Source: Planctomycetales bacterium
GTDB taxonomy: Bacteria > Planctomycetota > Planctomycetia > Planctomycetales > Planctomycetaceae
Direction: 5' to 3'
Length of the DNA: 64,000 bases
Assembly (NCBI GenBank): GCA_028285345.1
Contig: JANQPT010000018.1
Coordinates: 79,779 to 143,778 of the forward strand
Both the position numbers and the translations under genes were made by a program. The notes under the pieces were generated by a model. The model ran no database searches and had not been told where the DNA came from. It saw only the letters and a program-made list of their open reading frames with translations. This document shows, in pieces, positions 15,413 to 47,059 of the stretch. Each line of letters starts with the position of its first letter. The stretch's first letter is position 1.

Positions 15413-15452
15413 TCGCTGGGCGGGACTGGTCACAGGTACAACATGCACACTT

Positions 15453-15492
15453 GAGCGGGAGGGCCGGTTTTTGCCGCCTCCCGCTAGTTTTT
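15453..15492 (+). terminator. Rho-independent terminator-like hairpin
   Basis: gcgggagggccggtttttgccgcctcccgc stem-loop followed by tagttttttg, 40 nt after the stop of the 14741..15412 CDS. Confidence 0.55.
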
Positions 15493-15623
15493 TGCCGGGA
15501 GGCGGTTGCTAAACCTGTCAACGGCGCGCGACTCGGATACAATGGAACTGACGGGCGAGAGCCGCTCGTCATCACTGTCAAACCTAATACATCTAATTCT
15601 TTGCAACCAGTCGAGGCACTTCG

Positions 15624-16894: not shown

Positions 16895-17005
16895 GGTGCG
16901 TTGCGACGCACCGCCTATTTGTTGCATAAAGCATGGTGCGTCGCGACGCACCCTACGAAACTGACAAGACGCTGATTTCCGTTTCACCGCACCCTACGAA
17001 ACTGA
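16891..17005. repeat. REP-like palindromic element cluster (hairpin + CCCTAC tail), 3 units
   Basis: gtagggtgcgttgcgacgcacc (inverted unit), then ggtgcgtcgcgacgcaccctacgaaactga (18-bp perfect palindrome ggtgcgtcgcgacgcacc), then caccgcaccctacgaaactga. Same family as 49942..50085 and 59788..59808. Confidence 0.7.
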
Positions 17006-17027
17006 TCGCCGGACGTTTTCGAACCGC

Positions 17028-17984: not shown

Positions 17985-18001
17985 AATCCCGGTCAAGAAC
18001 C

Positions 18002-24052: not shown

Positions 24053-27000
24053 TCATGCTACCGGATCACCAAATCCGCCGCCACCGGGCGATTCGATCGT
24101 CAAGATATCTCCCCGCGCAACTTCCAGTTGCACTTTGCCGCCTAAATTCTCCGATTCCTCGCGACCGGCCCGTTGCCGTGAATTGACGCCCAATTTGCCC
24201 GGCTCGCCTCCTTGCAGCCCGAACGGCGGGTACGGTCCGCGGCGTTCGGTGAGTAGCGAGACCTGCAGTTTTCGCAAGAATTCAATCCTGCGAATAATCC
24301 CGTCGCCGCCGCGATGCCGCCCTGCTCCACCGGAGCCGCGGCGGATGCTGAATTCGTGCAGCCGGACCGGATAACGACGCTCAATCACCTCCGGGTCGGT
24401 CAGCCGCGTGTTGGTCATGTGGGTGTGGACCGCGTCGGCGCCGTCGGCGTCGGCCGTCGCACCGCTGCCGCCGCAGATCGTTTCGTAATAGCCGAATTGC
24501 TCGTCGCCGAACGTGAGGTTGTTCATCGTCCCCTGGCTGGCGGCGGCGACTTCGAGCGCGCCGAGCAATGCGTCGACCACGCGCGACGAGGTCTCCACGT
24601 TACCGCCCACCACGGCGGCGCAGCGGGCGGGATCGTCGTGCTCCGGCGGGTTGAGCAGGCACTCCGGCAAAATGATTGTTACCGGGAACAGCACGCCGCT
24701 GTTGAGTGGAATGTCTTCGTCGATCAAACAGCGAAAGACATACAGGACCGCTGCCGTTACGATGCCGCGATTGGCGTTGAGATTGCCGTCGATCACCGGC
24801 CCGGTCCCGCTGAAATCGACGGTTGCCATCTCGCCCTGAATCGTGATCTTCACCGCAATCGGCGAACCGTCGTCGAGGTGATCGACACGCTGATATTCTC
24901 CGTCGGGAATCTTCGCGAGCGCCATCCGCATTTTGCGGTCCGCCGCGTCCTGAATGTGCTGCATATAGGCCTGCACGACCGGCAACGAGTAGCGGTTAAC
25001 CAATTCGGATAGTAGATTCACGCCGTTGTTATTGGCGGCGACTTGTGCGGAGACGTCTGAGAGGTTTTCCTCGACGGCCCGTGTGGGACAGGGCGCGGTG
25101 GTGAGGAGTTCGCGCAATTCGGCCTCGCGCGACAGTCCGGCGTCGACCAATTTGAAGTTGCGAATCAGCACGCCCTCTTCGCCGAGGTTCTTCGAAAACG
25201 GCGGGAGGCTGCCGGGGATGATGCCGCCGATTTCCGCATGATGCGCCCGGCTGGCGGTGAAGAACAGCAGTTCGCAGGTCTGCTGATCGTGCACCGGTGT
25301 GACGACGGTGACGTCGGGCAGATGCGAGCCGCCGCGATACGGGTCGTTGGTGACGAAGACGTCGCCCGGCTGCAGGTCGGGATTGTCCGCCAGAATTCGT
25401 TTGACCGTTTCGCTCATCGCTCCCAGATGAACCGGGATGTGCGGTGCGTTGACGACCAGATCGCCTGTGGGCGAGAAAATTGCGCAACTGAAATCGAGCC
25501 GCTCTTTGACGTTCGTTGAGAAGGACGTCTTTTGCAGCGTGATGCCCATCTGTTCGGCGATCGAGGCAAACAGATTGTTGAAGATCTCCAGCATCACCGG
25601 ATCGGCCTCTGTGCTGTGTTGCTCGGCGGCTGTGTCGCCGGAATCGGAAATCAAGATCTCGCCGCGGGCGGTGATCTCGGCGGTAAATCCGGGATCGATT
25701 ACGACCGTTGACGTCGGTTCGCAGATGATCGCCGGGCCGGTGAAGCAATCGCCCGGCTGGAGTTCGCTCCGCTCGTAGACTCCCGTCGGCCAACTCCGGC
25801 CGCCGAACCAGGTTTCGGTTGTCTCGGCCGGTTCGGGATGCCGCTTGACGGTTGTTGTCGACTCGTCGTCCGCGTGGGGCGTTGTGCCGATGACTTCAAC
25901 GCGGGCGACTGCGACTTCGATCTCGCGTCCGGCATGTGCGTAGCCGTAGAGTTGGCGGTGCAGTTCCTCGTAGCGGCGGGCATATTCGCCGTCATCGGGC
26001 GCCGGAACGTTGATTGTCGATTCGACGCCGCGATACCGCATATCCAACGAGCGGATCGGCGGCGCAATCAGTGCTGCGTCGATGCCCTCCGCCGCGACTT
26101 CCGCTTGCGCCTGCCGCTCCAACTGTGCGAACACCGGCTCAAGTTGCTGCAACTGCTCGGGCGAATAGGTCTGCAAGACGGACGCTTCGGCATGCCGCCG
26201 CACGTCTGCCAAGCCGATCCCATAGGCACTGAGGATTCCCGCCAGCGGATGGACCAGCACTTGCCTGATTCCCAGCGCCCGCGCGATGGCGCAGGCATGT
26301 TGGGCGCCGGCGCCGCCGAAGGTGACCAGCACGTAGTCGCGGGGATCGTAGCCCTTGGCAACGGAGATGTTGCGAATCGGCCGGACCATGTTGGCGTTGG
26401 CGACTTTGAGAAATCCTTCGGCCAGTTCGATGGGCGTATAGTGCGTAGCGAGCGCAGATTGCGAGATCACGTCGCACAGCTCCGCCAGTTTTCGTTCGAC
26501 GACCCCGCGGTCCAATGGGAATGGAAATCGATCGGCCGGAATCTTGCCAAGGAACAGGTTGATGTCGGTGACGGTCAGCGGACCGCCCCGCCCATAGCAG
26601 GCGGGTCCGGGTGAGGCTCCCGCGCTTTGCGGGCCGACGGTTAATTTCACGCCGTCAAAATCGCAAATGCTGCCGCCGCCGGCAGCGACCGTTTCGATCG
26701 AGAGCATCGGCGCGACGACGCGGACGCCCGCTTTTTGCGTTTCGAACTCCAACTCGTACCGCCCGTCGAATCGCGAGACGTCGGTGCTGGTGCCGCCCAT
26801 ATCGAAGCCGATCGACTTTGCAAACCCCGCCCGCTGCGCAACTCGGGAGAAACCGATCACTCCGCCTGCCGGCCCCGAGAGGATGCTGTCCTTCCCGACA
26901 AAACGGTCGGCATCGACGAGGCCTCCGGCCGAGGTCATCATCTTCAGGCTGCTGGTCCCTAATCCGCTCCGTAGTTCGCCGACATACTGCCGCAGAATCG

Positions 27001-27868
27001 GATTCAGGTAGGAGTCCATCACCGTCGTGTCGCCGCGGGAGACGATCTTGATGAGCGGCGAGAGACGGCTGGAGGTACTGATCTCCGTGAAGCCGACGTC
27101 GCGGGCGATTCGCTCGATGAGTTCCTCGTGCTGTGGATTCGAGAAGGAATGCAGCAGGCAGATGGCGATCGAGTCGACGCCGGTACCCCGCAAATCTTGC
27201 AACTGCCGCCGCACGGCGTCTTCATTGGGAGAATGGAGCACGTTGCCATCGACGTCGACCCGCTCGTCGATTTCCACGACCTGGGTGAAAAGGGGTTGCG
27301 GCTTGCGGATCGCCAAGTCGAACAGCCGAGGCCGGTCCTGGTTGGCGATCAGCAACACGTCCTTGAAGCCGCGGGTGGTGATGAATCCCGTTCGCGCGCC
27401 GCGCCGTGTGAGCAGTGCATTGGTGCCCCGCGTTGTGCCCAGCCGCACGGAGACATCCGGGATCGCCTGGTCGAGCGGCAGGCCCAGCAGATAGCGTATC
27501 GCCACGACCGGTGCCTCTTCGCCGCTGGTGAGCTCGTAGTTTGTTCCGCCGAGGAGGGACTCCGGAATCGGCCGTTTGAGCGCGATTTCACCGGTCCGGC
27601 TGTCGAAATCGCTGACGGTGTCGGTATGCACGGCTGAGCCGTCATCGTCGAGAAAGCGGATTTCGTAGCCGTGCCAAAACTGCGGCGGGTCTTCGCAGCG
27701 GGATGGGTCGCGTATTGCCCGATCGCCGATTGTTTCAGAGACGCGTCCTTTGGTCACTCCCGTGCTAAGCAACTTGCGCTGAATTAAGCGGCCGCTGGGG
27801 TCGCGGGCAATGCAGTCGGTGAACGTACCGCCGACGTCGATCCAGAATTCCCAAACAGCCATCGGCAC
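24053..27868 (-). CDS. 5-oxoprolinase (ATP-hydrolysing), fused hydantoinase A/B (HyuA-HyuB) type
   Basis: 1271 aa. N-terminal hydantoinase/oxoprolinase N-domain, Hydantoinase_A core and C-terminal Hydantoinase_B region (…[38 protein letters not shown]…). Size and order match OPLAH-type fused enzymes. Confidence 0.8.
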
Positions 27869-33265: not shown

Positions 33266-36200
33266 TTGCAGAATTCTGGACACGCCCCCATGGCTCAAGC
33301 AGAACTCGACAAGACAGCCGCGGAGGAAGAAGCCGCGCCGGCGGTTGAGCTGCAGGGCAGTACGTATGAGATTATCCGCAACCGGCTGAACACGCACGGG
33401 ACGGAGCTTCGCAGCCGGCTGGAGCAGCTCAACGACGCCCGCAAGGAGGTGTTCGGCTCGATCGACACGGTGCTGCTCTCTACGGAGCGGATCACCACCG
33501 AGCATAACTGTGAGCCCCGCGACATGGTCGCTGTCGGGAACCGATTCTTGTTCGGCTACAACGTGCATTTCGGCCTCAAGTCGGAACGGCACCTCTCCGA
33601 CGTCTTCTCAGCCTACGAATTCAAAGAAGGCGGATTCCACGAACTGCCGCTGGACATCGTTTCCGACCCGCGGTTTGAAAAGGACTTCCAGGACGTTTAC
33701 CGCTACTACAAGAACGCAGTGTTCGCCAAGTTTTTCGTCCGCGGGCCGCACTTGTATATGATCTTTCGCGTGGGCAAGGGTGTCCACGACATTAAGACCT
33801 TCAAATGGGCCCTGCAGGGCGACGAGTTGGTCTACGTCGACAATCGCAGCGACCACGAAGTCCGCTACCCTCCACAACACGAGTTCGAGTGGACCCGCAC
33901 GCACCGCGATCTGCATCAAACCGGCCAACACCCGCACATCTCGATCGAAGACCGCATCTTCGTCGAGACCATCGGCGGGGATTTGACGATCAAAGTCGAG
34001 AACAACACCGACTCGGGCGAGGGCATTTATTCCGAACCGGTCGACGACCCGGACCAGACGCTCGACGATGCGGAAATTTATTACGCCGCCGTCGGCAACG
34101 TGATTCTGCTGAAGGTCAAACCTTACCAAGAGCAGACATTTCGCTACTTCGTCTACAACGAAAAGCTGCAACAGGCGCAGCGGCTCGACGCACTGGAATA
34201 CGCGTGCGTCCTGCTGCCCGACGACCACGGGTTGATCTTCGCCGACGGCTACTATTTGCAGACGGGGTTGTGCAAGACGTTCGGCAGCAATCTGGTCGAC
34301 ATGATCTTCGAACGCCGCATCGCGGCGGCCAACGGTGAAGATTACCTCTACGTGTTTTATAACCGTCTGGCCGGCGTGTATGTGCTGTTGCAATACAATC
34401 TGATCGAGCAGCGCGTGGAAACACCCGTCATCTGCAACGGTTTCACGTTCTTCCCCAACGGCGAGATGGTCTGCTTCAAGGCGCAGGAGGAACCGCAAAA
34501 GCATCATGCGGTGCAGGTTTGGCAGACGCCGTATGTGGGCGAAGACTACGTGCCGCACTCGCAGACCGACTCGTTCCTGTTCAAGATCGGCAATAAGGAT
34601 ATCGTCCGCGGCATGGCGGAATGCCATGAACTGCTGGAGTTGATTGAAAAAGAGGACACGTACGCCAATCTGTACGTCGACATCACCAAAGAAGCGAGCG
34701 GCATCGTCGATTCGTACTTTTGGGTCGACAAGCCGGAGACGTTTGACCTCAAAGAGCCGCTGGTCAAGATTCGCGACGCCGCATCCGCCGCCGTTGATGA
34801 GTTCGACAAAGTCGTCCGCGTCAAACAGGACACCGCCCGGCAGACCAAACGGGTCAGTGAACAAGCCCGCGAGATCATCTCCGCCGTCGGCCATAAGCGG
34901 TTCGACCACATCAACGATTTCGTCGGATCGCTCAGAGATCTGCGTTCGGTCCGGGGCGACATCATTTCGCTCCGCGATCTGCGGTATGTTGACGAACCGC
35001 TCGTTGAATCACTGGAGAACGAAGTCTCCGAACAGGCGGACAAACTGGCACAGCGGTGCGTGACGTTTTTGCTCGACCCGGCGGCGCTCACGCCTTACGA
35101 GCAAAAAGTCGCGGCTGAACAAGGGAAAATCGACGGTCTCACAAAAGTCACCGATGCCAAAGCGGTCGAGGAGGACATCTCCACCAGCGCCACGGAATTG
35201 GAGATGCTGATCGAGATCGTCAGCAACCTGAAGATTGACGACGCCACACAGCGAACGGCGATCATCGACAACATCTCGGCGATTTTCTCGACGGTCAACG
35301 CCGCCCGCGCGGCCCTGAAGAACAAGACGCAAGAGTTGCTCTCGGTCGAAGGCATCGCCGAGTTCAACTCGCAAATGAAGCTGCTCAACCAGGGGGTCGT
35401 CAACTACCTCGACATCTGTGACACGCCGGAGAAGTGTGAAGAATTCCTCACCAAGGTGATGATCCAGATTGAGGAATTAGAGGGCCGGTTCGCGGAATTC
35501 GACGAATTCGTCGTACAGCTCAGCGAAAAGCGGGAAGAAATTTACAACGCGTTTGAAACGCGCAAGCTGTCGCTGGTCGAAGCCCGTAACAAACGCGCAA
35601 GCGCCCTGGCCAATGCCGCCGACCGGATTCTCAAAGGGATCAAGACCCGCGTCGACAGCCTGGAGTCGATCAACGACATCAACGGCTACTTCGCGTCGGA
35701 CTTGATGATCGAAAAAGTCCGCGACATCGTCGAGCAGCTCAAGGAACTTGACGATACGGTCAAGGTCGACGACATCCAAAGCCGGCTCAAGACCGTCAAG
35801 GAAGATGCGGTCCGGCAACTCAAGGACCGGCAGGAGCTGTTTGTCGAAGGCGACAACATCATCAAGCTGGGCGAGCACCGCTTCTCCGTGAACGTGCAGG
35901 CGCTCGATTTGACAACTGTGCTCCGCGACGGCGAGATGAATCTGCACCTTACCGGAACGAACTTCTTCGAGCCGATCAAAAATGAGACTTTGACCGCGAC
36001 CCGTGACGTCTGGGACCAAGAGGTCGTCTCCGAGAACCGCCAAGTCTATCGCGGCGAATATTTGAGCTACAAAATCCTGCAATCGCTGCGGGAACCGGGC
36101 GCCGAGCCGTCGCTCGACGAACTCCACAACTACGACGAAAAACAATTGGCCGCCTACGTGCAGCGGTTCATGGGGCCGCGTTACGGCGAGGCTTACGTCA

Positions 36201-38656
36201 AAGGCGTGCACGATCAAGACGCGGCAAAACTCCTCGCCGGCCTATTGGAGATGGAAGCGACGATCGGGCTGCTCCGCTATCACACCCGCGCCCGGGCGAT
36301 GGCGTCGGTGCTGTGGCAGCACTTCGGTGACAAGAAACACAAAACACTGCTGGCCGCGAAGCTGAAGGGATTCGGCGCTGTTGCGGAATTGTTTCCGCAG
36401 ACTGCCGCCCAAACGGACTACATCACAGAACTCAGCGAGGTGCTTCAAGCTGCCGCAGCTGAGTCGGAGTTGTTCTCTGAGGAGTTCCTCGATCCCGCTG
36501 CGGAATACTTGTTTCACAACTTGTCGACCTCCGGCGAGGCGATTAGTCCACAAGCGGCGCAACTCTATCGCGATTTCGAGGAACACCTGCAGCGCAGCGG
36601 ATTCTCTGACAAGTATGAAAAGTCGCTCAAGGCGGTCCACCGTGACCCGGCCAGTGCTTTCTCTCTGGTTCGCGATTGGGTGCGTGCCTTTGTCGAGCAG
36701 CAAGACGGCGCGGAGCTAAACGACTATGTCGACGAAGTCTCGGCCCTGTTGCTGGCAGGCAAGCTCAACGACCTGCACATCGTCAACGCCGACGTCACCT
36801 GCGAAGTCTCCGGCCTTACGGGCACGCATGCCGTGATCCACGAAGGAGGATACGACCTCAATTACAGCCGGTTTACGCACAAACTGGCCGCATATGACGC
36901 TCAGGTTGTGCCACGCTACAACCAATATGTGCAGCTCAAGAAAGACATCGTTGACGCCTCACGTGACGAAATGAAACTGGAAGAGTTCCGGCCCCGCGTG
37001 CTGACCTCGTTTGTCCGCAACCGGTTATTGGACGAAGTTTATCTTCCGCTGATCGGCGACAACCTGGCCAAACAGATCGGCGCCGCGGGTGAAGGCAAGC
37101 GGACCGACCGCATGGGCTTGCTCTTGCTGGTCTCGCCTCCGGGATATGGCAAGACGACGTTGATGGAGTACATCGCCAATCGGCTGGGGATTATCTTCAT
37201 GAAGATCAACGGGCCGGCGATCGGGCATCAGGTTACGTCGCTCGATCCCAATGAGGCCCCCAACGCCGGCGCGCGCGAAGAAGTCGAGAAGCTGAACCTC
37301 GCCCTGGAAATGGGCGACAACGTGATGATCTACCTCGACGACATTCAGCACTGCAACCCGGAGTTTCTGCAGAAATTCATTTCACTCTGCGACGCGACCC
37401 GCAAGATTGAAGGCGTGTATAAAGGCCGCACGCGGACTTATGATCTGCGCGGCCGCAAGGTCGCCGTTGTCATGGCCGGGAACCCCTATACTGAGAGCGG
37501 CGAGAAGTTTCAGATTCCCGACATGCTCTCCAACCGGGCCGATATCTACAATCTGGGCGAGATCATTGGCGAGCATGCGGCGTCGTTTGAAATGAGCTAT
37601 TTGGAGAACTGCCTCACCTCTAATCCGGTGTTGAATAACCTGGCCAGTCGCAGCCAAAGAGATGTGTATGCCGTGATCCGCATGGCGGAGCGCGACAGCG
37701 CCGAAGGGGCCGACCTGGAGGGAAACTATTCGGCCGAAGAACTGGGCGAGATGGTCTCCACCATGAAAAAGTTGATGACGGTCCGTGACGTGATTTTGAC
37801 CGTCAACCGCGAGTACATCCGCTCCGCCGCCCAGTCCGACGACTACCGCACCGAACCGGCGTTCAAACTGCAGGGTTCGTACCGGAACATGAACCGGATT
37901 GCCGAAAAGGTCGTGCCGGTAATGAACGACGACGAGTTGCAGGCGCTGATTGTGTCCAACTACGAAAACGACTCGCAGACGCTCACCTCCGATGCCGAAG
38001 CGAACATGCTCAAATTTAAGGAGTTAATCGGCATCCTTAATGACGAGGAAGCGAAGCGTTGGGCGAACATCAAGAAGACCTTTTCGCAAAACGTCAAGCT
38101 CCGCGGGGTCGACGCCGACGACAAGGTTGGGCAGATTATCGTGCAGATGAGTTCGTTCACGGACGGGCTGGACGCGATTCGCGACGCGATGACGGCCGGG
38201 ATTACTCAACTCGTGCGGCAGGGCGAGGGCTCAGAGTTGGACGAACATTTTACACAACTTTCGGCGCAGATCAGCAGCCTGCGGGAAGGGCTGGACGCAA
38301 TTCACGGCAGCCTTTCCGACGGAATCCCCGCGCTGGTGACTGCGACAGAGCGTCCCGATCCGCCCGCAGTGGTGCAGAAACCCGCAGCGCCCCCGCCGCC
38401 CTCAGACGAGAGCATCATTCAGACATCCGCCGGATCGCAGAAGATCACCGTCGTCAACAAACTGCCCCGCAGCGTCTACAACGTGCTGCAACAGCAATTC
38501 GACCTGATGCGGAATTGGATGAAGCCGCTGTTGGAATCGACCACAACGCAATCGGCGGAAATCGAGAAACTTAAGGAAACCGTCATCCAATGTCTCAAGG
38601 ATTACAACCGCATGCTCCGCCGCATCGAGCAGGACGACAAATCGAAGTCATCGTGA
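33266..38656 (+). CDS. Giant (1796 aa) multidomain protein with a single MoxR/dynein-type AAA+ ATPase core
   Basis: Walker A LLLLVSPPGYGKTTL (nt ~37133-37159). Walker B VMIYLDDIQ (nt ~37328-37342). Sensor/Arg-finger region VAVVMAGNPYTESGEKFQIPDMLSNRADIYNL. N-terminal ~600 aa globular, ~600 aa helical/coiled-coil middle, helical C-terminus ending in a Pro-rich stretch. Possible true start at MAQAELDK (33290). Confidence 0.7.
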   Translation: MQNSGHAPMAQAELDKTAAEEEAAPAVELQGSTYEIIRNRLNTHGTELRSRLEQLNDARKEVFGSIDTVLLSTERITTEHNCEPRDMVAVGNRFLFGYNVHFGLKSERHLSDVFSAYEFKEGGFHELPLDIVSDPRFEKDFQDVYRYYKNAVFAKFFVRGPHLYMIFRVGKGVHDIKTFKWALQGDELVYVDNRSDHEVRYPPQHEFEWTRTHRDLHQTGQHPHISIEDRIFVETIGGDLTIKVENNTDSGEGIYSEPVDDPDQTLDDAEIYYAAVGNVILLKVKPYQEQTFRYFVYNEKLQQAQRLDALEYACVLLPDDHGLIFADGYYLQTGLCKTFGSNLVDMIFERRIAAANGEDYLYVFYNRLAGVYVLLQYNLIEQRVETPVICNGFTFFPNGEMVCFKAQEEPQKHHAVQVWQTPYVGEDYVPHSQTDSFLFKIGNKDIVRGMAECHELLELIEKEDTYANLYVDITKEASGIVDSYFWVDKPETFDLKEPLVKIRDAASAAVDEFDKVVRVKQDTARQTKRVSEQAREIISAVGHKRFDHINDFVGSLRDLRSVRGDIISLRDLRYVDEPLVESLENEVSEQADKLAQRCVTFLLDPAALTPYEQKVAAEQGKIDGLTKVTDAKAVEEDISTSATELEMLIEIVSNLKIDDATQRTAIIDNISAIFSTVNAARAALKNKTQELLSVEGIAEFNSQMKLLNQGVVNYLDICDTPEKCEEFLTKVMIQIEELEGRFAEFDEFVVQLSEKREEIYNAFETRKLSLVEARNKRASALANAADRILKGIKTRVDSLESINDINGYFASDLMIEKVRDIVEQLKELDDTVKVDDIQSRLKTVKEDAVRQLKDRQELFVEGDNIIKLGEHRFSVNVQALDLTTVLRDGEMNLHLTGTNFFEPIKNETLTATRDVWDQEVVSENRQVYRGEYLSYKILQSLREPGAEPSLDELHNYDEKQLAAYVQRFMGPRYGEAYVKGVHDQDAAKLLAGLLEMEATIGLLRYHTRARAMASVLWQHFGDKKHKTLLAAKLKGFGAVAELFPQTAAQTDYITELSEVLQAAAAESELFSEEFLDPAAEYLFHNLSTSGEAISPQAAQLYRDFEEHLQRSGFSDKYEKSLKAVHRDPASAFSLVRDWVRAFVEQQDGAELNDYVDEVSALLLAGKLNDLHIVNADVTCEVSGLTGTHAVIHEGGYDLNYSRFTHKLAAYDAQVVPRYNQYVQLKKDIVDASRDEMKLEEFRPRVLTSFVRNRLLDEVYLPLIGDNLAKQIGAAGEGKRTDRMGLLLLVSPPGYGKTTLMEYIANRLGIIFMKINGPAIGHQVTSLDPNEAPNAGAREEVEKLNLALEMGDNVMIYLDDIQHCNPEFLQKFISLCDATRKIEGVYKGRTRTYDLRGRKVAVVMAGNPYTESGEKFQIPDMLSNRADIYNLGEIIGEHAASFEMSYLENCLTSNPVLNNLASRSQRDVYAVIRMAERDSAEGADLEGNYSAEELGEMVSTMKKLMTVRDVILTVNREYIRSAAQSDDYRTEPAFKLQGSYRNMNRIAEKVVPVMNDDELQALIVSNYENDSQTLTSDAEANMLKFKELIGILNDEEAKRWANIKKTFSQNVKLRGVDADDKVGQIIVQMSSFTDGLDAIRDAMTAGITQLVRQGEGSELDEHFTQLSAQISSLREGLDAIHGSLSDGIPALVTATERPDPPAVVQKPAAPPPPSDESIIQTSAGSQKITVVNKLPRSVYNVLQQQFDLMRNWMKPLLESTTTQSAEIEKLKETVIQCLKDYNRMLRRIEQDDKSKSS

Positions 38657-38767
38657 TCCAATTGCCAACCGCCGGCCCTGCCGGGGTTTCGCTGATGCCC
38701 AAACAAAAACGGGACCGGACGCAACAAGCGCCGGTCCCGCAATTCGTTTCATGGGCGTGTGGTCGGG

Positions 38768-39007
38768 TTATCCAAGCGACTCGTAACAGCCCCGGCCCGT
38801 GTGGCGGCATTCGCCGTCGCCGACCAGTTGGTCGTCCGGCCCGTAGGTGGCCTGTGTCTTGCCGCACCAGAAATTACCGTCGCCGGTAATCCATTCATCG
38901 CGGGGAAGCCCGGAATTGAGGTACATGCCCTTGCAGAGCAAGTTCAAGCACCGCTCACCTGTCGGCTGTTGGTCTTGTTCGTCGATGATCGGAAGTTGCT
39001 CAGCCAT
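38768..39007 (-). CDS. Small Cys-rich protein (79 aa, 6 Cys) downstream of the Mo-hydroxylase FAD subunit
   Basis: MAEQLPIIDEQDQQPTGERCLNLLCKG...NFWCGKTQ...GDGECRHTGRGCYESLG. Starts 3 nt after the FAD-subunit stop on the same strand. Confidence 0.4.
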   Translation of the reverse strand: MAEQLPIIDEQDQQPTGERCLNLLCKGMYLNSGLPRDEWITGDGNFWCGKTQATYGPDDQLVGDGECRHTGRGCYESLG

Positions 39008-39010
39008 CTG

Positions 39011-40006
39011 TTACAGACCTCCTTCCAGCAATCCGGCGGATCGCAAAATCGCCCGCTTGACCGCAGTCTTGGCAAGTTGAACTTTGTAACCGTTATCCTT
39101 CAGTGGAGTCGCGCGGCTGACGGCTGCTTCGCCGGCCAACTGAGCGGTCTCTTCCGTGACCGGTTGGCCGAGCAGTGCGCTGGCGGCTTCTTGTGATACC
39201 CACGGAGTCGGCGCCACGAAGCCAAGCACGATGCAGGCATCGCTGACCCGGCCGCCGCTCAGTTCCAATGTCGCCGCAGCGGAGGCCAACGGCCAATCCA
39301 GCCCTGCCGTCTGCAATACGTCGTAATTGCCGCTCACCGCACCCGCGATCCGCGGCAGCCAAACGTGCGAAACCAACTGGCCCGGCTTGAGCACGGTTGT
39401 TCCCTGCCGCTCTGTGCGCGGTGTTTTGTAGAAATGCTCCAGCGGGAGTACTTCTTCGTCTTCGGGTCCGGGACCGATAATCCGCACTTGGGCACCCCAG
39501 GCGATCATTGCGGGAGCAAACCGCGTCGCGGTGACGTACTTTGCCGGTCCGGAGTTTCCGAAAACAGCGTGATAACGGCCGTCGCCCAGTTCGGGCAACG
39601 ACTTGCCGTTCTCCTGCGCCAACAGGCCGTAGCCGCTGCGGTAATACCAGCAGTTCGGCAGATGGCACAAATCGCCGGCGATTGTCCCTGACGATTGGAT
39701 TTGGATGGCATGCACGGCATCGGCCGCCTGCACGAGCGAGGCGTAATCCGCCAGGAGCGGATTTTCCAAAACGTCGTCCAAGGTGACCAGTGCGCCGACC
39801 ATTACGCCGCCGTCGGCTTCATAGACTTGCTGCATGCTCTCGATATTGCGGATGTCGACCACCCGATCGGGCCGAATCACGTCAGCCTGCATCAGCGCAA
39901 TTAAATCGGTCCCGCCCGCGAAGATGGCGGTCTGTTCCGGATTGTCGCCCATCAGCTCCAACGCTTCGGTTTCGGTTCGGGGATCGGCGAATTCAAACGA
40001 CTTCAT
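39011..40006 (-). CDS. Xanthine-dehydrogenase-family FAD-binding subunit (CoxM/PaoB-like)
   Basis: MKSFEFADPRTETEALELMGDNPEQTAIFAGGTDLIALMQADVIRPDRVVDI is the FAD_binding_5 N-terminus. Start ATG 40004-40006 overlaps the Moco-subunit stop (ATGA). The ORF-track extension to 40366 is in-frame junk overlapping the upstream gene. Confidence 0.75.
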   Translation of the reverse strand: MKSFEFADPRTETEALELMGDNPEQTAIFAGGTDLIALMQADVIRPDRVVDIRNIESMQQVYEADGGVMVGALVTLDDVLENPLLADYASLVQAADAVHAIQIQSSGTIAGDLCHLPNCWYYRSGYGLLAQENGKSLPELGDGRYHAVFGNSGPAKYVTATRFAPAMIAWGAQVRIIGPGPEDEEVLPLEHFYKTPRTERQGTTVLKPGQLVSHVWLPRIAGAVSGNYDVLQTAGLDWPLASAAATLELSGGRVSDACIVLGFVAPTPWVSQEAASALLGQPVTEETAQLAGEAAVSRATPLKDNGYKVQLAKTAVKRAILRSAGLLEGGL

Positions 40007-42216
40007 GCAGCACCTCCCTTCTGCAGCGCGTCCAGAACCCGTTGCGGGGTCAAGGGGAGCACTGGCACGCGGACGCCGGTGGCGTTGGCCACCGCATTGG
40101 AAATGGCGGCCCCCGGCGAAATGACCGGCGGTTCGCCTAAACCGACAACTCCGCGATTGTATTCGCTCGCCGGCTGATACATTTTGACTTGCAGGTTGCC
40201 GATGTCGCCAATCCTCGGCACCTTGTAGTCCTCCAGGTTGGCGTTCAGATAGCGGCCCGTGTGATTGTCCATGATCCGCTCTTCCATCAGAGCATACGAG
40301 ATGCCCATGATCATGCCGCCATAAACCTGGCTGCGGGCGGTCAATTCGTCGATGATCAACCCGCAATCCTGCACACAGACGAAATCGTTGATGCGGATTG
40401 TGCCGTCTTCAGTATTGACCGACACGTCGGCCATTTGCACTCCGCCGACCGTGGAGGACGTGAGCCCATCCTTGGTACCGCGGCCGTTCACTCCTTGAAC
40501 TTCCAAAGGCATCGGTCCGATCAGGGCCGTCGCCTGTTGCCATGTGCAGACTTCCTGACCTCCGGAGACGATCTTTCCGCCTCGAGCGGCCAGGGCATCG
40601 GCCGGGACATTAAACTTCTTGGCGACCAAATCGAAGATCTGCCAGAGTGCGTCTTGGGCGGCTCGCCGATGAGCACTGGAGACCCCGCCAACGGTGATAC
40701 TTCCGCCGGAGGCGCCCGATTTCGGGTACTTGCTCGATCCGAGGTTCACTTTGACCTGATCGAGATTGAGCCCGAACGTTTCTGCCATCACGATGGCAAT
40801 GACCGTCCGCGTTCCCGTACCGATGTCTTGGCTGCCGAGAAATGTTTCCACGGAGCCGTCTCGGTGCACCTTCAGCAGGCACGAGCAGGGACCAGCGCCC
40901 CCGCCCCAGGTGTGCAGCGCCAAGCCGAGACCCCGCTTGACCGGGCCGTTGCCACCCCCTTTGCCGTGGGGATGCCACTTGGCTTTCCAATCGATCATCT
41001 CCGCCGCGATCTTCATCTGATCCCGGTAGACGTCGGCGCGGTCAGCAAGACCTTTTGAGACCTGATTCAGATTCTTCATGAACAGGTCGTAGCTATCCAT
41101 GCCCATTTTCGCCGCCAAGTCGTCCATGGCGGTTTGGGTCATGGCGCAGAGTTGTGGATGCGGGGGCGCCCGCCATGCCCGGTTTGGTCCGGTGTTGCAG
41201 ACCAAGCCAGTCGCTTTGCGGTTGCGGTTGGCGAAGTCGAAGACATAGGGAATGCCGCTCAACCTCACCGTCCCGCCACCGGTGCCGTTGGTGCCCCAGT
41301 GATCGCTGTCCCAAGCGACGATGTTTCCCTCGGAGTCGGCCGCGATGGTGACTTCAATGAATCCCGAGGGACGTGTTCCGGCAATCTTCAGGTCTGTGGC
41401 GCGATCCAACATCAACCGCACCGGCTTGCCCGCCGCTTTGGCCAATTCCGCACAGGCAATTCCCCATTCATCGGCGGCAAACTTCGAACCGAAGCCGCCT
41501 CCTTCGTAGTCGGATTGCACATGCACGGCCGTTTCATCCAGCCCGAGCGCTCCTGAGAACTGCCCTGGAGTGCCGGACACATTCTGCGTGGAGAGATGAA
41601 CCTCCAGCTTGTCGTCACCTTGCCACTCGCAGTGTGAACCGTGGGGCTCCAGACACATATGACTGATGGTGTGGACACCGTAATAGCCCTTGTGCACGAC
41701 AACTGCGTCGCTGATGGCGGCCGCCACGTCGCCTTTTTTGTTATCACCAAGTGACTTCAGCCGCTTGATCCCGGTTTCCTCTTCGGCTTTTTTCGCTCCT
41801 TCGATGTCTTCTTCGTCGACGAAAAACGGTAGCGGCTCATACTCGATCTCAATGGCCCGCACGCCGTCGGCGGCGATTTCAGGGCGATCGGCGGCCACGG
41901 CCACAATTGGCGCGCCGTCCCAGCGCAGTTCCTTCGACTCGCCGGTTTCGATATCGTATGCCGTCGGAAATACGTAGACCGCCCGCACTCCCTCCACCTG
42001 CGTCGCCGGATCCACGTTCAGCTTTTTGATTTTGGCGTGTGCCTGGTTGGACGTGAGCAGTCTGGCGTACAGGGTGCCCGGAGTGTTGATATCAGCGGAA
42101 TATTTTGCGCGGCCGGAGGATTTATCGGCGGCGTCGATCCGTTGGATATCCTTGCCGATCAATACGTTGTCAGCGCGGGGTCCCCAAGTGTGTTCCCGTT
42201 TGGTTTCTTCCGCCAT
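40003..42216 (-). CDS. Xanthine-dehydrogenase-family molybdopterin-binding large subunit (PaoC/CoxL-like)
   Basis: a/b-hammerhead N-terminus (GKDIQRIDAADKSSGRAKYSADI) and aldehyde-oxidase/xanthine-DH Moco domain. C-terminal GEPPVISPGAAISNAVANATGVRV. Start taken at MAEETKREH (42214-42216). Confidence 0.8.
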   Translation of the reverse strand: MAEETKREHTWGPRADNVLIGKDIQRIDAADKSSGRAKYSADINTPGTLYARLLTSNQAHAKIKKLNVDPATQVEGVRAVYVFPTAYDIETGESKELRWDGAPIVAVAADRPEIAADGVRAIEIEYEPLPFFVDEEDIEGAKKAEEETGIKRLKSLGDNKKGDVAAAISDAVVVHKGYYGVHTISHMCLEPHGSHCEWQGDDKLEVHLSTQNVSGTPGQFSGALGLDETAVHVQSDYEGGGFGSKFAADEWGIACAELAKAAGKPVRLMLDRATDLKIAGTRPSGFIEVTIAADSEGNIVAWDSDHWGTNGTGGGTVRLSGIPYVFDFANRNRKATGLVCNTGPNRAWRAPPHPQLCAMTQTAMDDLAAKMGMDSYDLFMKNLNQVSKGLADRADVYRDQMKIAAEMIDWKAKWHPHGKGGGNGPVKRGLGLALHTWGGGAGPCSCLLKVHRDGSVETFLGSQDIGTGTRTVIAIVMAETFGLNLDQVKVNLGSSKYPKSGASGGSITVGGVSSAHRRAAQDALWQIFDLVAKKFNVPADALAARGGKIVSGGQEVCTWQQATALIGPMPLEVQGVNGRGTKDGLTSSTVGGVQMADVSVNTEDGTIRINDFVCVQDCGLIIDELTARSQVYGGMIMGISYALMEERIMDNHTGRYLNANLEDYKVPRIGDIGNLQVKMYQPASEYNRGVVGLGEPPVISPGAAISNAVANATGVRVPVLPLTPQRVLDALQKGGAA

Positions 42217-42218
42217 GA

Positions 42219-42845
42219 TCAAGCACCTCCCTTCTGACACAGTTCCAGTGCGGCCGCGGTGACGCCCGCATAGGTGCCGCAACGGCAGATGTTACCGCCC
42301 AGTCCCTTGCGGATTTGCTCCAAGTTGGCGCCGGGGTTCTTGTTCAGGAACGCCCGCACCGCAACCACGAACCCGGGCGTGCAGTAACCGCACTGAGTCG
42401 CATCGTGTTTGACGAATGCCGTAATCACCTCGTCGACGTTCTTGCCCTCTGAGAGGCCTTCCACGGTGGTGATATTTTTGCCTTGCTCGGCGAAGGCCAG
42501 CCGCGTGCCGGCGGCGACGGCTTTTCCGTCAATGATCACCGTATCGGCGCCGTCGTTGCTGGAGACGCCCACGTCCTTTGCGCCGGTCAGGTTGAGGTCG
42601 TTCCGCAATGCGTCAAGCAACGTCACCCGTGGTTCGAGCATCAAGGTGTGCTCTTTGCCGTTGACGGTCAGTACGACTTTTTGCGCCTTAGAAGACTTGA
42701 GCCGGGAGGGCTTCTTCGCTTCTGCAACCGCTTCGGTCGCTTGCGTAGCGACGGCGGTTGCCGCGACGGCGGCTCCCGAGCCTTGCAGGAATGCGCGGCG
42801 GCTTAAGCCCGATCCGCGTCCTGAGGAATGTTCTCGATCTCGCAT
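42219..42845 (-). CDS. TAT-exported [2Fe-2S]-type small subunit of the Mo-hydroxylase, with degenerate N-terminal cluster site
   Basis: Twin-arginine signal GLSRRAFLQGSGAAVAATAVA. C-terminal cluster motif QCGYCTPG...CRCGTY is intact. At the N-terminal ferredoxin-type site, LTGAKDVGVSSNDGADTVIIDGKAVAAG aligns to canonical LTGxxxGCxxxxCGACTVxxDGxxxxSC with all four Cys replaced (V, D, D, G). Confidence 0.75.
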   Translation of the reverse strand: MRDREHSSGRGSGLSRRAFLQGSGAAVAATAVATQATEAVAEAKKPSRLKSSKAQKVVLTVNGKEHTLMLEPRVTLLDALRNDLNLTGAKDVGVSSNDGADTVIIDGKAVAAGTRLAFAEQGKNITTVEGLSEGKNVDEVITAFVKHDATQCGYCTPGFVVAVRAFLNKNPGANLEQIRKGLGGNICRCGTYAGVTAAALELCQKGGA

Positions 42846-43210: not shown

Positions 43211-43528
43211 ATGCACCACGAGTTCCCACAAGTCACTCACTGTCTCACGCATCAGCTTCCCGAGGACCAGACGAGCATGCTCGGTCTGGTCTGTTGCGAG
43301 TGCAAACATCGTTTGTACGCCGATCCTCCGCAGGGATCTCCACGCGGCTGTTGGGAAAGCCAGCCGGCCGCTTATTCGCTCGACCGGCGCCCCTGCTTTG
43401 TCTACACGCTGATGTGGGACGACTTTCGCATTCGTTCGTTGCACCCCGCCGATTCGGCGGAAGACGCGCGGTCGCCGCTCAATCGAAACGACGCGCAAAG
43501 CACGCGGCCGCTTGACGAATCGTGGTGA
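43211..43528 (+). CDS. Hypothetical small Cys-containing protein
   Basis: MHHEFPQVTHCLTHQLPEDQTSMLGLVCCECKHRLY... ORF in an otherwise gene-free 0.7-kb gap. Weak support. Confidence 0.25.
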   Translation: MHHEFPQVTHCLTHQLPEDQTSMLGLVCCECKHRLYADPPQGSPRGCWESQPAAYSLDRRPCFVYTLMWDDFRIRSLHPADSAEDARSPLNRNDAQSTRPLDESW

Positions 43529-43638: not shown

Positions 43639-44616
43639 GTGACTCCGATGCCAAACCGCAGCGTCTACTTCAATGGAGAGTTTGTCCCCGAATCCGAAGC
43701 ACGGGTTTCGATCTTTGATTCCGCGCTGATGTTCGGCGACATGGCGTTTGAAATGACGCGCACGTTTGCGCAACAGCCGTATCGGCTCCGTGATCACCTG
43801 GAACGGCTGTTTGCATCGATGCGGCTGTTGGAGATTGATTGCGGGTTGACGATCAATGAGATGCTGCGGCTGACGGAAGAGACATTGTCCCGCAATCTGA
43901 CGACGGAAGCGGAGGACGTCGACTGGCAAATCATGCACGATGTTTCGCGGGGGCCGCTGTCGCTGTACAGCACCGTGTTTCCCGACGGCGGGCGGCCGAC
44001 CGTTTCCATCAATTGCTGGCCGCTGATCAAACATATGGGCCAATTCGCCGCGAGCTACACCGACGGCGTGGACGTGGCGATTGTCGCCCAGCCGGCGATC
44101 CCGGCGACGATGCTCGATCCCAAAGCCAAAACCCGCAGCCGGGCGCACTACCAAATGGCCTTGTTACAGGGTGCGCGGCTGGGCAAGGGAGTCTGGCCGC
44201 TGCTGGTCGATCCCGACGGCTATCTGGCCGAAGGTCCCGGCTGGAATCTGTTTCTGGTCAAAGACGGGACGATCTATTCGCCCGAACCGCGGAACATCCT
44301 GTTGGGCGTCAGCCGCTCGACCGTCGCCGAACTGGCGGAAAAGATTGACGTTCCCTTCGAATCGACGAATCTGGGGCGCTACGAGGCGCTGCAGGCGGAC
44401 GAGATGTTCTGCACCGCCACGACGTTCTGCGTCGTGCATGCCCGCTCGTTTGAAGGACAGCCGGTCGGAGACGGACGGCGCGGTCCGATTGTTACGCAAC
44501 TGCAGCGGGCATGGACCGAGTACGTGGGCGTCGATTTCATTTCGCAGGCGCAAGATTACGCGCGGCGACTTCCTGTTTGGGAACAACGGGAGATCGCCGC
44601 GCGAAAATGCGATTAG
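43639..44616 (+). CDS. Class IV (fold-type IV PLP) aminotransferase (branched-chain/D-amino-acid aminotransferase or ADC-lyase family)
   Basis: YFNGEFVPESEARVSIFDSALMFGDMAFEMTR N-terminus. EGPGWNLFLVKDGTIYSPE, ILLGVSR, and the E..F....TT region are typical of the IlvE/Dat/PabC fold. 325 aa. Confidence 0.7.
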   Translation: MTPMPNRSVYFNGEFVPESEARVSIFDSALMFGDMAFEMTRTFAQQPYRLRDHLERLFASMRLLEIDCGLTINEMLRLTEETLSRNLTTEAEDVDWQIMHDVSRGPLSLYSTVFPDGGRPTVSINCWPLIKHMGQFAASYTDGVDVAIVAQPAIPATMLDPKAKTRSRAHYQMALLQGARLGKGVWPLLVDPDGYLAEGPGWNLFLVKDGTIYSPEPRNILLGVSRSTVAELAEKIDVPFESTNLGRYEALQADEMFCTATTFCVVHARSFEGQPVGDGRRGPIVTQLQRAWTEYVGVDFISQAQDYARRLPVWEQREIAARKCD

Positions 44617-44880: not shown

Positions 44881-45360
44881 TTAGCGATATTGGGCGCGCT
44901 GTTGCATGGCTTCGATCACGTGCTCGCTCACGTTACCTTGGCGGAGCTGGATCAATCCGTCGGTCGTCATATCAAAGATGCCGCCGCGGCGTTTGATCTC
45001 GTTGACGATGATGCGATCGCTCATGCCGTTTTGCGCCAATTTGATCACGTCGTAGTTGTTCATCGCTTGTTGTTCAAATTTGCGTTGTGCTTCCTGGTGC
45101 TGGGCATGACGGGCGTACATGTCGCGCTCTTCGGCGTTGTCCTTTGCCTTGCCCATTGCTCCGCCCATCAGCGCGCCGGCTCCGCCGCCGATCAAGGCGC
45201 CGAGATCGCGGTTGCCCGTTTGGTGCCCGATAATCGCGCCCAGTCCAGCGCCGCCGGCACCACCGACGACGGCACCTTTTTCCGTATTGTTCATATGCTC
45301 GCAGCCCGCGGCCAGCGCCAGCAATGCGGGGAGAGTGATGATCCACTTCATCTGTGACAT
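44881..45360 (-). CDS. Glycine-zipper lipoprotein (SlyB/Pcp-like)
   Basis: Lipobox LLALAAGC. Gly-zipper GAVVGGAGGAGLGAIIGHQTGNRDLGALIGGGAGALMGGAMG. Confidence 0.6.
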   Translation of the reverse strand: MSQMKWIITLPALLALAAGCEHMNNTEKGAVVGGAGGAGLGAIIGHQTGNRDLGALIGGGAGALMGGAMGKAKDNAEERDMYARHAQHQEAQRKFEQQAMNNYDVIKLAQNGMSDRIIVNEIKRRGGIFDMTTDGLIQLRQGNVSEHVIEAMQQRAQYR

Positions 45361-45640
45361 AATCCGCTCCGTCTGTTTTGAGAGGTTTTGCGCAACGCGA
45401 TCGGGAAAACCAGACAGGTCTCCGAATATCGAGATGCTGTAGAAAGTGTGATAGAGAGAGTTGAGAGAGGCGGGGATTTTCTATATGTGGCGGATCAGGT
45501 CAAGAGGAAATAATCGACGTCACAAATCGACACATTCGCATCCGGAGCGGTGTTCTATCAATTTCTGTATACTTTGCTTAGGACCACATTTGATCCCCCC
45601 GAACATTCGCCCCTCGAAACCACGCCCGGAAAGAATCAAC

Positions 45641-47059
45641 ATGCACATTCAGATACTGCGGAATGTTCTGTGCTTTGTGGTCTGCTTAGCGGCCTTTAAC
45701 TGCTGTCAACCAGCTGTGAGCTACGCAGCGGAGACGCCTCCCAACTTCATCGTGTTCCTCGCCGACGACCAGGGCTGGGGCGATTTGGGCTGTTACGGGC
45801 ATCCGGTGCTGAAGACACCGCACATTGACAAGTTTGCCCGGCAGGGGATGCGGTTTACGCAATGTTATGCGGGCAGCGCGTTTTGTTCGCCGTCGCGGTC
45901 CGCGATTCTCACCGGACGGACGCCGTACCGTAACGGCGTATTCACCTGGCTGCCTGAGCGGGACAGAGTGCACCTGCGCAGCAGCGAAATCACGATTGCC
46001 AAACTGCTCAAGCAGCGCGGTTATGCAACGTGCCACGTCGGCAAGTGGCATCTCAACGGCTTTTTTAACTCGCCCCAACAGCCGCAACCGAATGACCACG
46101 GCTACGATCACTGGTTCGCCACCCAGAACAACGCTGCGCCGAATCACAAAAATCCGGTCAACTTCGTCCGTAACGGCCAGCCGGTCGGCAAACTGGAGGG
46201 CTTTTCCTCGATCCTGGTCGCCGAAGAAGCGATCCGCTGGCTGCGCGGTCAGCGCGATAAGTCAAAGCCGTTTTTCATGACCGTCTGGACGCACGAGCCG
46301 CACCTGCCGATCGAGTCGGACCCGAAATTCATGGCGCTGTATGAAGGGGACGACGATCTCAAGCAGCACCACGGCAACGTCAGCCAGTTGGACCACGCCT
46401 TCGGCATGTTGATGCGCGAATTGGACGAGCAGCAACTGGCGGACAACACGTTTGTGATTTATACGTCGGACAACGGACCGGAAGGGCGGCTGGACGACAA
46501 TGGTTACCCCATCGGCCGCAACAAACGGACGCGGGGCTCGACCGGCGGACTGAGGGGCCGCAAGCGTGACATGTACGAAGGGGGCATTCGCGTGCCGGGG
46601 ATCGTCCGCTGGCCCGGTCACGTCAAAGCGGGCACGGAATCTGACCAGCCGATCATCGGTTCTGACGTGTTCACCACGATCTGCGAAATCATGAAGATCC
46701 CTCTGCCTGCCGACCGCACGATCGACGGAGCCAGCATGCTGCCCGCGTTTGCGCAGAAACCGATCACCCGCGAAATCCCTCTGTATTGGCGCTGCTACAT
46801 TGCCAAAGGGCCGATCACCGCGATGCGGATCGGTGATTGGAAAATCCTCTCCGACGAAGCGTTGACCACTTTTGAGATGTACAACATCAAAGACGACCCG
46901 CGCGAGCAACACGATTTGGCGACCTCGCATCCGCAGAAATTCCGGGAAATGCGGGAACGGTTTCGCAAGTTGAACGCGGAAATCGAAGCGGAAGGCCCGG
47001 ACTGGTGGAAGGGGTATCGCCGTCCGGGTCGGCGGAAGCGTCCTACGGCCAAACCGTGA
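45641..47059 (+). CDS. Sulfatase (formylglycine-dependent arylsulfatase family)
   Basis: Signal peptide, NFIVFLADDQGWGDLGCYGHP, and FGly motif CSPSRSAILTGR (C-x-P-x-R). Start at ATG 45641 (MHIQILRNVLCFVVCLAAF). Confidence 0.85.
   Translation: MHIQILRNVLCFVVCLAAFNCCQPAVSYAAETPPNFIVFLADDQGWGDLGCYGHPVLKTPHIDKFARQGMRFTQCYAGSAFCSPSRSAILTGRTPYRNGVFTWLPERDRVHLRSSEITIAKLLKQRGYATCHVGKWHLNGFFNSPQQPQPNDHGYDHWFATQNNAAPNHKNPVNFVRNGQPVGKLEGFSSILVAEEAIRWLRGQRDKSKPFFMTVWTHEPHLPIESDPKFMALYEGDDDLKQHHGNVSQLDHAFGMLMRELDEQQLADNTFVIYTSDNGPEGRLDDNGYPIGRNKRTRGSTGGLRGRKRDMYEGGIRVPGIVRWPGHVKAGTESDQPIIGSDVFTTICEIMKIPLPADRTIDGASMLPAFAQKPITREIPLYWRCYIAKGPITAMRIGDWKILSDEALTTFEMYNIKDDPREQHDLATSHPQKFREMRERFRKLNAEIEAEGPDWWKGYRRPGRRKRPTAKP

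Follow-up and report, generated by a model that had tools for sequence, protein, structure and literature searches.

The DNA analyzed here is a stretch of 64,000 nucleotides of contig JANQPT010000018.1 from a Planctomycetales bacterium (assembly GCA_028285345.1), referred to below as the window. Its minus strand carries four consecutive genes that encode (i) the small iron-sulphur (FeS) subunit, (ii) the large molybdenum cofactor (Moco) subunit and (iii) the medium, flavin adenine dinucleotide (FAD)-binding subunit of a molybdenum (Mo) hydroxylase of the xanthine oxidase family, and (iv) a cysteine-containing protein of 79 amino acids (aa) (Table 1). In the textbook Moco-FeSI-FeSII-FAD chain of this family, the small subunit contributes two [2Fe-2S] clusters, FeSI in its C-terminal domain and FeSII in its N-terminal ferredoxin-type domain. 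Judged from the sequence, the small subunit of the window has lost all four FeSII ligands and kept those of FeSI; the Moco-site residues of the large subunit and the motifs of the FAD subunit are likewise preserved.

The genes are tightly packed. A 2-nucleotide (nt) spacer separates the small- and large-subunit genes, the large- and FAD-subunit genes overlap by ATGA, and a 3-nt spacer precedes the open reading frame (ORF) for the 79-aa protein. An earlier reading of the same DNA, made from its letters without database searches (the sequence-only reading), had described ATGA and 2-nt overlaps; the ATGA overlap holds, and the other junctions proved to be spacers. The final codons (K/E-G-G-A/L) of the small-, large- and FAD-subunit genes contain GGAGGT (42219-42235, 40003-40020 and 39011-39025, minus strand), and this Shine-Dalgarno-like element falls 6-10 nt ahead of the start codon of the following gene, a placement that suggests translational coupling across all four genes. 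Beyond the 3' end of the 79-aa gene, RNA folding predicts a hairpin of -32.2 kcal/mol (z = -5.8). This hairpin was missed by a scan for consensus promoters and terminators, in which nothing rose above the shuffle expectation. Because of the tight junctions, the GGAGG stretches at the gene ends and the closing hairpin with its U-run, the four genes are treated as one unit, with the order FeS-Moco-FAD-79aa. No paralogue of the Mo-hydroxylase occurs in the window.

Table 1. Genes, domains and signals of the four-gene Mo-hydroxylase unit (positions refer to the window)
Feature	Position	Strand	Evidence
Small FeS subunit, 208 aa	42845..42219	minus	ORF, Pfam, PDB sequence match
Twin-arginine signal core, residues 14-34, LSRRAFLQGSGAAVAATAVAT	42744..42806	minus	TIGR01409
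N-terminal ferredoxin-fold (beta-grasp) domain without [2Fe-2S] ligands, residues 56-131	42453..42680	minus	no Fer2 match, AlphaFold2 fold
Former FeSII ligand loop, Gly93/Asp98/Asp101/Gly113 in place of Cys	42507..42569	minus	alignments
C-terminal FeSI domain, Cys152/155/187/189 (QCGYCTPG...CRCGTY)	42231..42452	minus	Fer2_2
Large Moco subunit, 737 aa	42216..40003	minus	Pfam, PDB sequence match
FAD-binding medium subunit, 331 aa	40006..39011	minus	Pfam, motifs
Conserved small ORF, 79 aa	39007..38768	minus	fourth gene of module, homologue alignment
Intrinsic-terminator-like hairpin and U-run	38741..38701	minus	RNA fold

The small subunit begins with a twin-arginine translocation (TAT) signal, SRRAFLQG, that scores 21.2 bits with TIGR01409 (cut-off 16.7) and 19.7 bits with the Pfam family TAT_signal, the latter being under its cut-off; the region aligns with the signal of PaoA. 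The N-termini of the large, FAD and 79-aa proteins are not signal-like. The domains and the TIGR01409 match agree with the sequence-only assignment to a TAT-exported Mo-hydroxylase of the xanthine oxidase family.

The only Pfam match of the small subunit is Fer2_2 (PF01799, 5.7e-25). Its N-terminal domain, taken in isolation, has no match to Fer2 (PF00111) even at E<=10, and the same segment of the Cys-containing homologue P0012 matches Fer2 at 1.3e-8. The positions of the canonical C-x4-C-x2-C-x11-C motif were located by phmmer against the PDB and by a MAFFT alignment of 120 homologues. PaoA, Methylobacillus aldehyde oxidase, quinoline oxidoreductase, CutS and CoxS aligned end to end. The best PDB sequence match is PaoA (5g5g, 1.3e-31), and all 37 matching PDB small-subunit sequences align a Cys at each FeSII position. 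Alignment to PaoA- and CoxS-type small subunits thus bears out the loss of every N-terminal ligand and the retention of the C-terminal cluster. The four positions are occupied by Gly93, Asp98, Asp101 and Gly113. The two Asp and the last Gly had been named correctly before; the first residue had been given as Val, and since the C-x4-C spacing requires G-VSSN-D, it is Gly93 and not Val94. All four FeSI cysteines lie in invariant columns, and the protein contains only one further Cys (C203).

The AlphaFold2 (AF2) model of the small subunit, built with 32 homologues, keeps the two-domain fold, with a per-residue confidence (pLDDT) of 73-88 outside the ligand loop. In a Foldseek search, the model superimposed on CutS, PaoA and CoxS over both domains at a root-mean-square deviation (rmsd) of about 2 Å.

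The large subunit contains the a/b-hammerhead domain PF01315 (Ald_Xan_dh_C is also listed), MoCoBD_1 and MoCoBD_2; PF01315, PF02738 and PF20256 lie above their gathering cut-offs. Its best PDB match is PaoC (5g5h, 7e-62). The Gln of STQN, the GGGFG motif, the Arg of WRAP and the Glu of GLGEPP, which we take to be catalytic or Moco-contacting residues, align with their PaoC counterparts.

The FAD subunit matches FAD_binding_5 (PF00941, 1.3e-28) and CO_deh_flav_C (PF03450, 1.2e-15), and all of the Cys-less operons examined have its gene. We compared the window with ten related loci (L001, L003, L005, L167-L171, L173 and L175). In 11 of the 11 operons the motifs AGGTDL and GT[IL][AG]GDL are kept (GTIAGDL in the window). 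The retention of this subunit, noticed already in the sequence-only reading, is thus borne out by Pfam domains and, as described below, by purifying selection. A four-Cys [4Fe-4S] motif in the FAD subunit is characteristic of PaoABC (PMC13404670). The planctomycete subunits keep the length of the corresponding PaoB-type loop insertion with one of the four cysteines (C119), the other three being lost in all 11 operons. The loop (residues ~110-165) has the form CHLPNCW[YF][YF]R.G.GLL...R.HA..GN.GPAKFV in Cys-containing and Cys-less operons alike, and is among the most conserved stretches of the subunit, with C114 and C119 as invariant Cys.

The 79-aa protein has no match in Pfam or NCBIfam. Its homologues form 57 clusters, all unannotated, and its counterparts across the operons are 71-81 aa long with the pattern RC..KG..GDG..WC..GPD..C..R.C. 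Five cysteines (20, 25, 48, 67 and 74) were found where six had been counted before, and four of them are invariant among 33 homologues; the invariant residues of the family are R19, C20, K26, G27, G42, D43, G44, W47, C48, G56, P57, D58, C67, R72 and C74. The protein lacks a signal peptide and CxxC pairs, and its AF2 model (pLDDT 46) is too poor to infer a fold. The sequence-only reading had proposed that it may substitute or assist. ORFs of this type occur in Cys-less, Cys-containing and Pirellulales operons, and follow the FAD gene in the four-Cys operons L003, L169 and L170. Because it is also present in operons that keep FeSII, the 79-aa ORF is not a specific replacement of FeSII; its product could be a family-wide accessory protein or subunit.

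The loss of the FeSII ligands recurs among relatives. The 120 nearest homologues of the small subunit come mostly from planctomycete metagenome-assembled genomes; the FeSII Cys are absent in 73 of them, and all four are present (the CCCC pattern) in the other 47. Ligand 3 is Asp in all 72 full-length Cys-less sequences, which belong to Planctomycetaceae clades, and in nearly all of these, ligand 1 or ligand 2 is a further acidic residue, Asp or Glu. In the complete genome of Symmachiella dynata Mal52 (CP036276.1), a cultured marine planctomycete, the same operon, whose small-subunit gene lies at about 2.34 Mb next to Mal52_18900, has the ligand pattern S-D-D-S. This genome shares with the window the order of a Gly-zipper protein, a class-IV aminotransferase, the operon and a ~1800-aa DUF3686/AAA protein, which puts the window within Symmachiella or close to it. 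Orthologues thus have in common both the degenerate site and the small Cys-rich neighbour.

Small subunits from outside this group mostly keep the motif. Among the matches listed for loci from other phyla, CCCC was found in 163 of ~165 and a Cys-less site in none; the few remaining patterns, such as GDCC, resemble spacing shifts. This control set derives from scans of genome and metagenome contigs in which the matches listed were almost exclusively distant, Cys-containing relatives. The 150 best matches among 1.84 billion representatives at 50% identity include 133 CCCC sequences and 8 Cys-less ones, all close relatives of the query. Some 300 small subunits of other lineages retain the FeSII Cys.

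The search of representatives exposed two more Cys-less types, Q-D-D-G and all-Ser. The second characterizes a large Pirellulales clade (L173, L174 and L175; small subunit at 8001-8630) with Ser, Asn or Thr at the four FeSII positions and S-x-D-x-S-S-G-A-S as its typical loop. Each of the 120 best matches in this clade lacks the FeSII Cys set, with at most one Cys left, and each has the four FeSI Cys (120/120). Two Pirellulales loci contain the same four-gene module, with a CN_hydrolase gene upstream in both contexts. Altogether, a module of a TAT-bearing small subunit, a large subunit, an FAD subunit without the [4Fe-4S] Cys and a ~75-aa protein was found in the window and in L001, L003, L005, L167, L169, L170, L171, L173 and L175. 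This Planctomycetota four-gene module is a grouping defined in the present analysis and corresponds to no curated family. Within the non-exhaustive coverage of the literature, neither a family member lacking FeSII nor such a planctomycete PaoABC-like module was found.

To reconstruct the history of the loss, we built a neighbour-joining tree from the concatenated large and FAD subunits (1014 ungapped columns, 14 operons, three outgroups, 500 bootstraps). The window clade was monophyletic together with the CCCC operons L003 and L170 in 493 of 500 bootstraps, and the Asp-type Cys-less operons were monophyletic in 0 of 500; a 12-taxon tree and a small-subunit tree concur with this grouping. The small subunit of the window is 72% identical to the Cys-containing P0012, versus 64% to the main Cys-less clade, and the Asn preceding ligand 2 is common to the window clade and its CCCC relatives. 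Because the window clade nests with CCCC operons and a regain of four ligands is implausible, the tree implies at least three independent losses of FeSII: (i) in Pirellulales, (ii) in the main D-x-D clade or clades, and (iii) in the window clade, with its G/S-D-D-G/S pattern.

Ratios of nonsynonymous to synonymous substitution rates (dN/dS, Nei-Gojobori) were 0.07-0.17 over the four genes, including 0.09-0.15 for the FAD subunit, 0.10-0.17 for the 79-aa ORF and, in the Cys-less lineages, 0.08-0.13 for the N-terminal domain of the small subunit; dS is saturated (>1), and the values are qualitative only. With the ligand columns excluded, the identity of the N-terminal domain is 74% in the Cys-less set and 73% in the Cys-containing set. 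This domain appears to be under purifying selection as strong as in the Cys-containing relatives.

Comparison with known systems revealed both shared and distinct features. Like the planctomycete enzyme, PaoABC combines FeS, FAD and Moco subunits in a heterotrimer; in both, the FeS subunit alone bears a TAT signal, an arrangement that implies export by hitch-hiking, and the FAD subunit has its loop insertion at the same place. The planctomycete enzyme differs from PaoABC in that (i) it lacks the FeSII ligands and three of the four [4Fe-4S] Cys, (ii) its gene order departs from paoA(FeS)-paoB(FAD)-paoC(Moco)-paoD, (iii) its fourth gene encodes the 79-aa Cys protein, whereas PaoD is XdhC-like, and (iv) it scores 149.4 versus 322 (PaoA) and 314.9 versus 1180 (PaoC) with the NCBIfam equivalogs, at ~36% identity. 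A local search for XdhC/PaoD-like Pfam families on the called genes within ~8 kilobases (kb) found none at 11 loci. The label PaoABC-like, used in the sequence-only reading, therefore fits the export logic, but not the gene order, the equivalog cut-offs, the [4Fe-4S] motif or the content of the surrounding ~8 kb, where PaoD is missing.

The three-subunit aldehyde oxidase of Methylobacillus sp. KY4400 (5Y6Q) ranks second among the PDB matches of each of the three subunits, and it alone among them matches the FAD subunit over its full length in a single stretch (7e-27); it differs in keeping both [2Fe-2S] sites and four Cys in the loop of the FAD subunit. Among the carbon monoxide dehydrogenases (CODH) CutS/CutM (1FFU) and CoxS/CoxM (1N5W), CutS ranks first among the structural matches of the small-subunit model (TM 0.89, rmsd 2.0 Å) and CutM first among the sequence matches of the FAD subunit, and the CODH FAD subunit is likewise without [4Fe-4S]. 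These enzymes, however, are cytoplasmic and have two [2Fe-2S] clusters, and the large subunit of the window scores 114.7 versus 991 with TIGR02416 (CO_dehy_Mo_lg) and 196.9 versus 950 with NF040766. The MOP enzymes of Desulfovibrio gigas and D. desulfuricans (1SIJ and 1DGJ) also have a shortened cofactor chain, in which the Mo/FeS core tolerates the loss of a downstream redox module. They lack FAD and keep both [2Fe-2S] clusters, whereas the planctomycete enzyme keeps FAD and lacks FeSII. The closest comparison is offered by the Cys-containing orthologues P0012/L003, P0107/L170 and P0103/L169, which have the same four-gene module at 64-72% identity per subunit, the same Cys-poor FAD loop and the same small Cys ORF, and are often flanked by DUF1326, methenyl-tetrahydromethanopterin (H4MPT) cyclohydrolase (MCH), hydantoinase and MOSC genes. 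They differ in keeping C-x4-C-x2-C-x11-C and in matching Pfam Fer2.

From these data we infer that the FeSII-less enzyme is a working hydroxylase. In the proposed scheme, substrate oxidation would stay at Moco and electrons would pass on to FeSI as before. The N-terminal domain would be retained for a structural task, joining the FAD subunit to the FeSI/Moco core as an adaptor, and the old cluster pocket would be filled by Asp98/Asp101 in the window or by Ser in Pirellulales, satisfying backbone amides that were once hydrogen-bonded to the cluster. FAD would remain the exit site, reached from FeSI by one long tunnelling step in place of two short ones. In bovine xanthine dehydrogenase and CODH, FeSI and FeSII are ~12.4 Å apart, and FeSII and FAD ~8 Å. 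From such distances, the direct step may be estimated at 17-20 Å edge to edge, for which the Moser-Dutton ruler would give roughly 10-400 per second, a slow rate within the turnover range of the family. FAD is probably still in use, because the FAD subunit and its motifs are kept in every FeSII-less lineage. A single adequate FeSI-FAD step would make FeSII repeatedly dispensable while the FAD subunit never is. The only changes that accompany the loss in the three subunits lie within the ligand loop; new Cys, His or aromatic residues covarying with it were sought and not found.

Thus, the four genes may form a functional, TAT-exported, Planctomycetota-specific module in which FeSII has been eliminated and FAD is reached by one long step; we assign this reading a probability of roughly 0.4. 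The broader proposition, that a working FeSII-less Mo-hydroxylase has repeatedly evolved and been kept, either since a step of 17-20 Å suffices or by virtue of an unrecognised exit route (possibly the 4-Cys protein), seems to us slightly more probable than its negation.

Several points weigh against the single long step. Physiological electron-transfer chains normally hold their steps below ~14 Å, and both the FeSI-FAD distance and its rate are estimates made from known structures of relatives and not from coordinates. The former ligand loop, with a pLDDT of 57, is the least confident part of the AF2 model. We infer FAD binding by the medium subunit from its motifs. The number of losses derives from distance methods applied to 14 taxa with sparse sampling. 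The strict Asp at ligand 3 in several lineages could hint at a role more specific than that of a plug, metal binding for example.

The main rival is a bypass, which appears possible and on balance unlikely. The enzyme would be active, electrons would go from FeSI, or straight from Mo, to the 4-Cys protein as an additional redox subunit or to an external acceptor in the periplasm (for example O2 or a cytochrome), and the N-terminal domain and the FAD subunit would serve as an assembly or Tat scaffold. The whole planctomycete family already lacks the [4Fe-4S] exit cluster of PaoB, and its own fourth gene, which is under purifying selection, encodes a protein with four invariant Cys; should electrons exit through this protein in every member, FeSII would be superfluous, and its repeated loss would be explained. 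PaoB and PaoC are known to be exported by hitch-hiking on PaoA (PMC4273604), which makes a structural need for all subunits plausible. However, the FAD motifs are invariant in lineages that have long been without FeSII, and one would expect a mere scaffold to decay or disappear, as in the FAD-less Desulfovibrio aldehyde oxidoreductases. Moreover, FeSI is buried beside the pterin in known structures, and the 4-Cys protein lacks a signal peptide, CxxC pairs and a confidently predicted fold.

A replacement metal or cofactor in a pocket of Asp98, Asp101 and Asn97, acting as a relay or as a regulatory or structural site, is less likely, and we consider it improbable. The sequence-only reading had suggested that the two Asp might bind another metal. 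The invariance of Asp at ligand 3 in the 72 Planctomycetaceae sequences, together with the near-constant second acidic residue, speaks for such a site, as does the independent appearance of this Asp in at least two lineages, the change from Cys to Asp requiring two nucleotide substitutions per codon each time. Against it, the acidic positions vary by clade (G-D-D-G versus D-S-D-S), no His or Cys has been gained nearby, and carboxylate-only sites rarely carry redox-active relay centres. A replacement metal common to all lineages is disfavoured because the Pirellulales version, in the same operon, is all-Ser, with Ser, Asn or Thr at the four positions. The metal-pocket suggestion is therefore weakened by the Pirellulales type and by the absence of covarying Cys or His.

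It is more doubtful still that the complex is a pseudo-enzyme, which has lost redox catalysis and acts as a periplasmic binding, sensing or structural protein. In its favour, an interrupted canonical wire is what classically marks an inactive paralogue, and the surroundings of the operon contained no XdhC/PaoD gene for maturation in the loci examined. Yet the residues for Moco binding and catalysis are kept at a dN/dS near 0.1, as are the FeSI ligands and the FAD motifs, and the Cys-less operon sits at the orthologous locus of the Cys-containing operons and is not a duplicate, the window being free of paralogues. That the pattern is an artefact of sequencing, assembly or frame, or that the gene is a recent pseudogene, is excluded by the unbroken reading frame, by the identical protein in an independent NCBI record (P0001), by the same pattern in dozens of independent assemblies and in the finished genome CP036276.1, and by strong purifying selection; of the two objections that the sequence-only reading had considered, a faulty frame or assembly is contradicted by the orthologues that share the site, and a dead paralogue by the lack of any second copy in the window.

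The two-cluster wire has been treated as an invariant of the family, and a recurrent FeSII-less form challenges the need for FeSII to reach FAD. If our interpretation is true, the textbook chain from Moco to FAD would not be obligatory, and orthologues that differ in the presence of FeSII, including one in a cultivable host, would form matched pairs for gauging what a relay cluster contributes. Such pairs would provide a natural test of the distance limits of electron transfer, with the Cys-containing orthologues as built-in controls. The annotations "(2Fe-2S)-binding protein" or "YagT" would credit hundreds of planctomycete proteins with more cofactor than they contain. A further outcome is the definition of a four-gene module, specific to Planctomycetota, whose 4-Cys mini-protein is strictly conserved and uncharacterised.

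The neighbourhood of the operon has several further features. Just upstream, a divergent gene for a Cys/His-rich protein of ~105 aa (MHHEFPQVTHCLTHQ...CCECKHRLY...) occupies 43211-43528 on the plus strand. Its product is 75-77% identical to counterparts in S. dynata (L171 4459-4770) and L001 and has no Pfam or NCBIfam match; it might be a regulator. At the 3' end, a plus-strand gene for a 1796-aa DUF3686/DUF7902/AAA ATPase (33266-38656) converges on the operon, and the corresponding neighbour in S. dynata Mal52 has 1810 aa.

A plus-strand block at 14741-18871 comprises genes for DUF1326 (14741-15409), two proteins of unknown function (15624-16301 and 16298-16894), MCH (17028-17984) and a RimK-like ATP-grasp protein (18002-18871). 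In several other planctomycetes the MCH block lies directly downstream of the Mo-hydroxylase operon; in the window it is rearranged, ~21 kb off and on the other strand. A functional link to H4MPT-dependent one-carbon metabolism was considered and rejected as strong evidence, the block being rearranged ~21 kb off in the window and in S. dynata and missing at the Pirellulales loci. On the minus strand, positions 24053-27868 encode a fused hydantoinase/oxoprolinase A+B protein of 1271 aa, and in L003, L005 and L168 the hydantoinase gene, together with MOSC, cyclophilin and D-glutamate cyclase genes, flanks the operon.

On the other side, the class-IV aminotransferase gene (43639-44616) is adjoined by a Gly-zipper lipoprotein-like ORF (44881-45360, minus strand) and by a sulfatase-like ORF (45461-47059, plus strand), the latter being a candidate recognized by eye from the motif LADDQGWGDLGCYGH.

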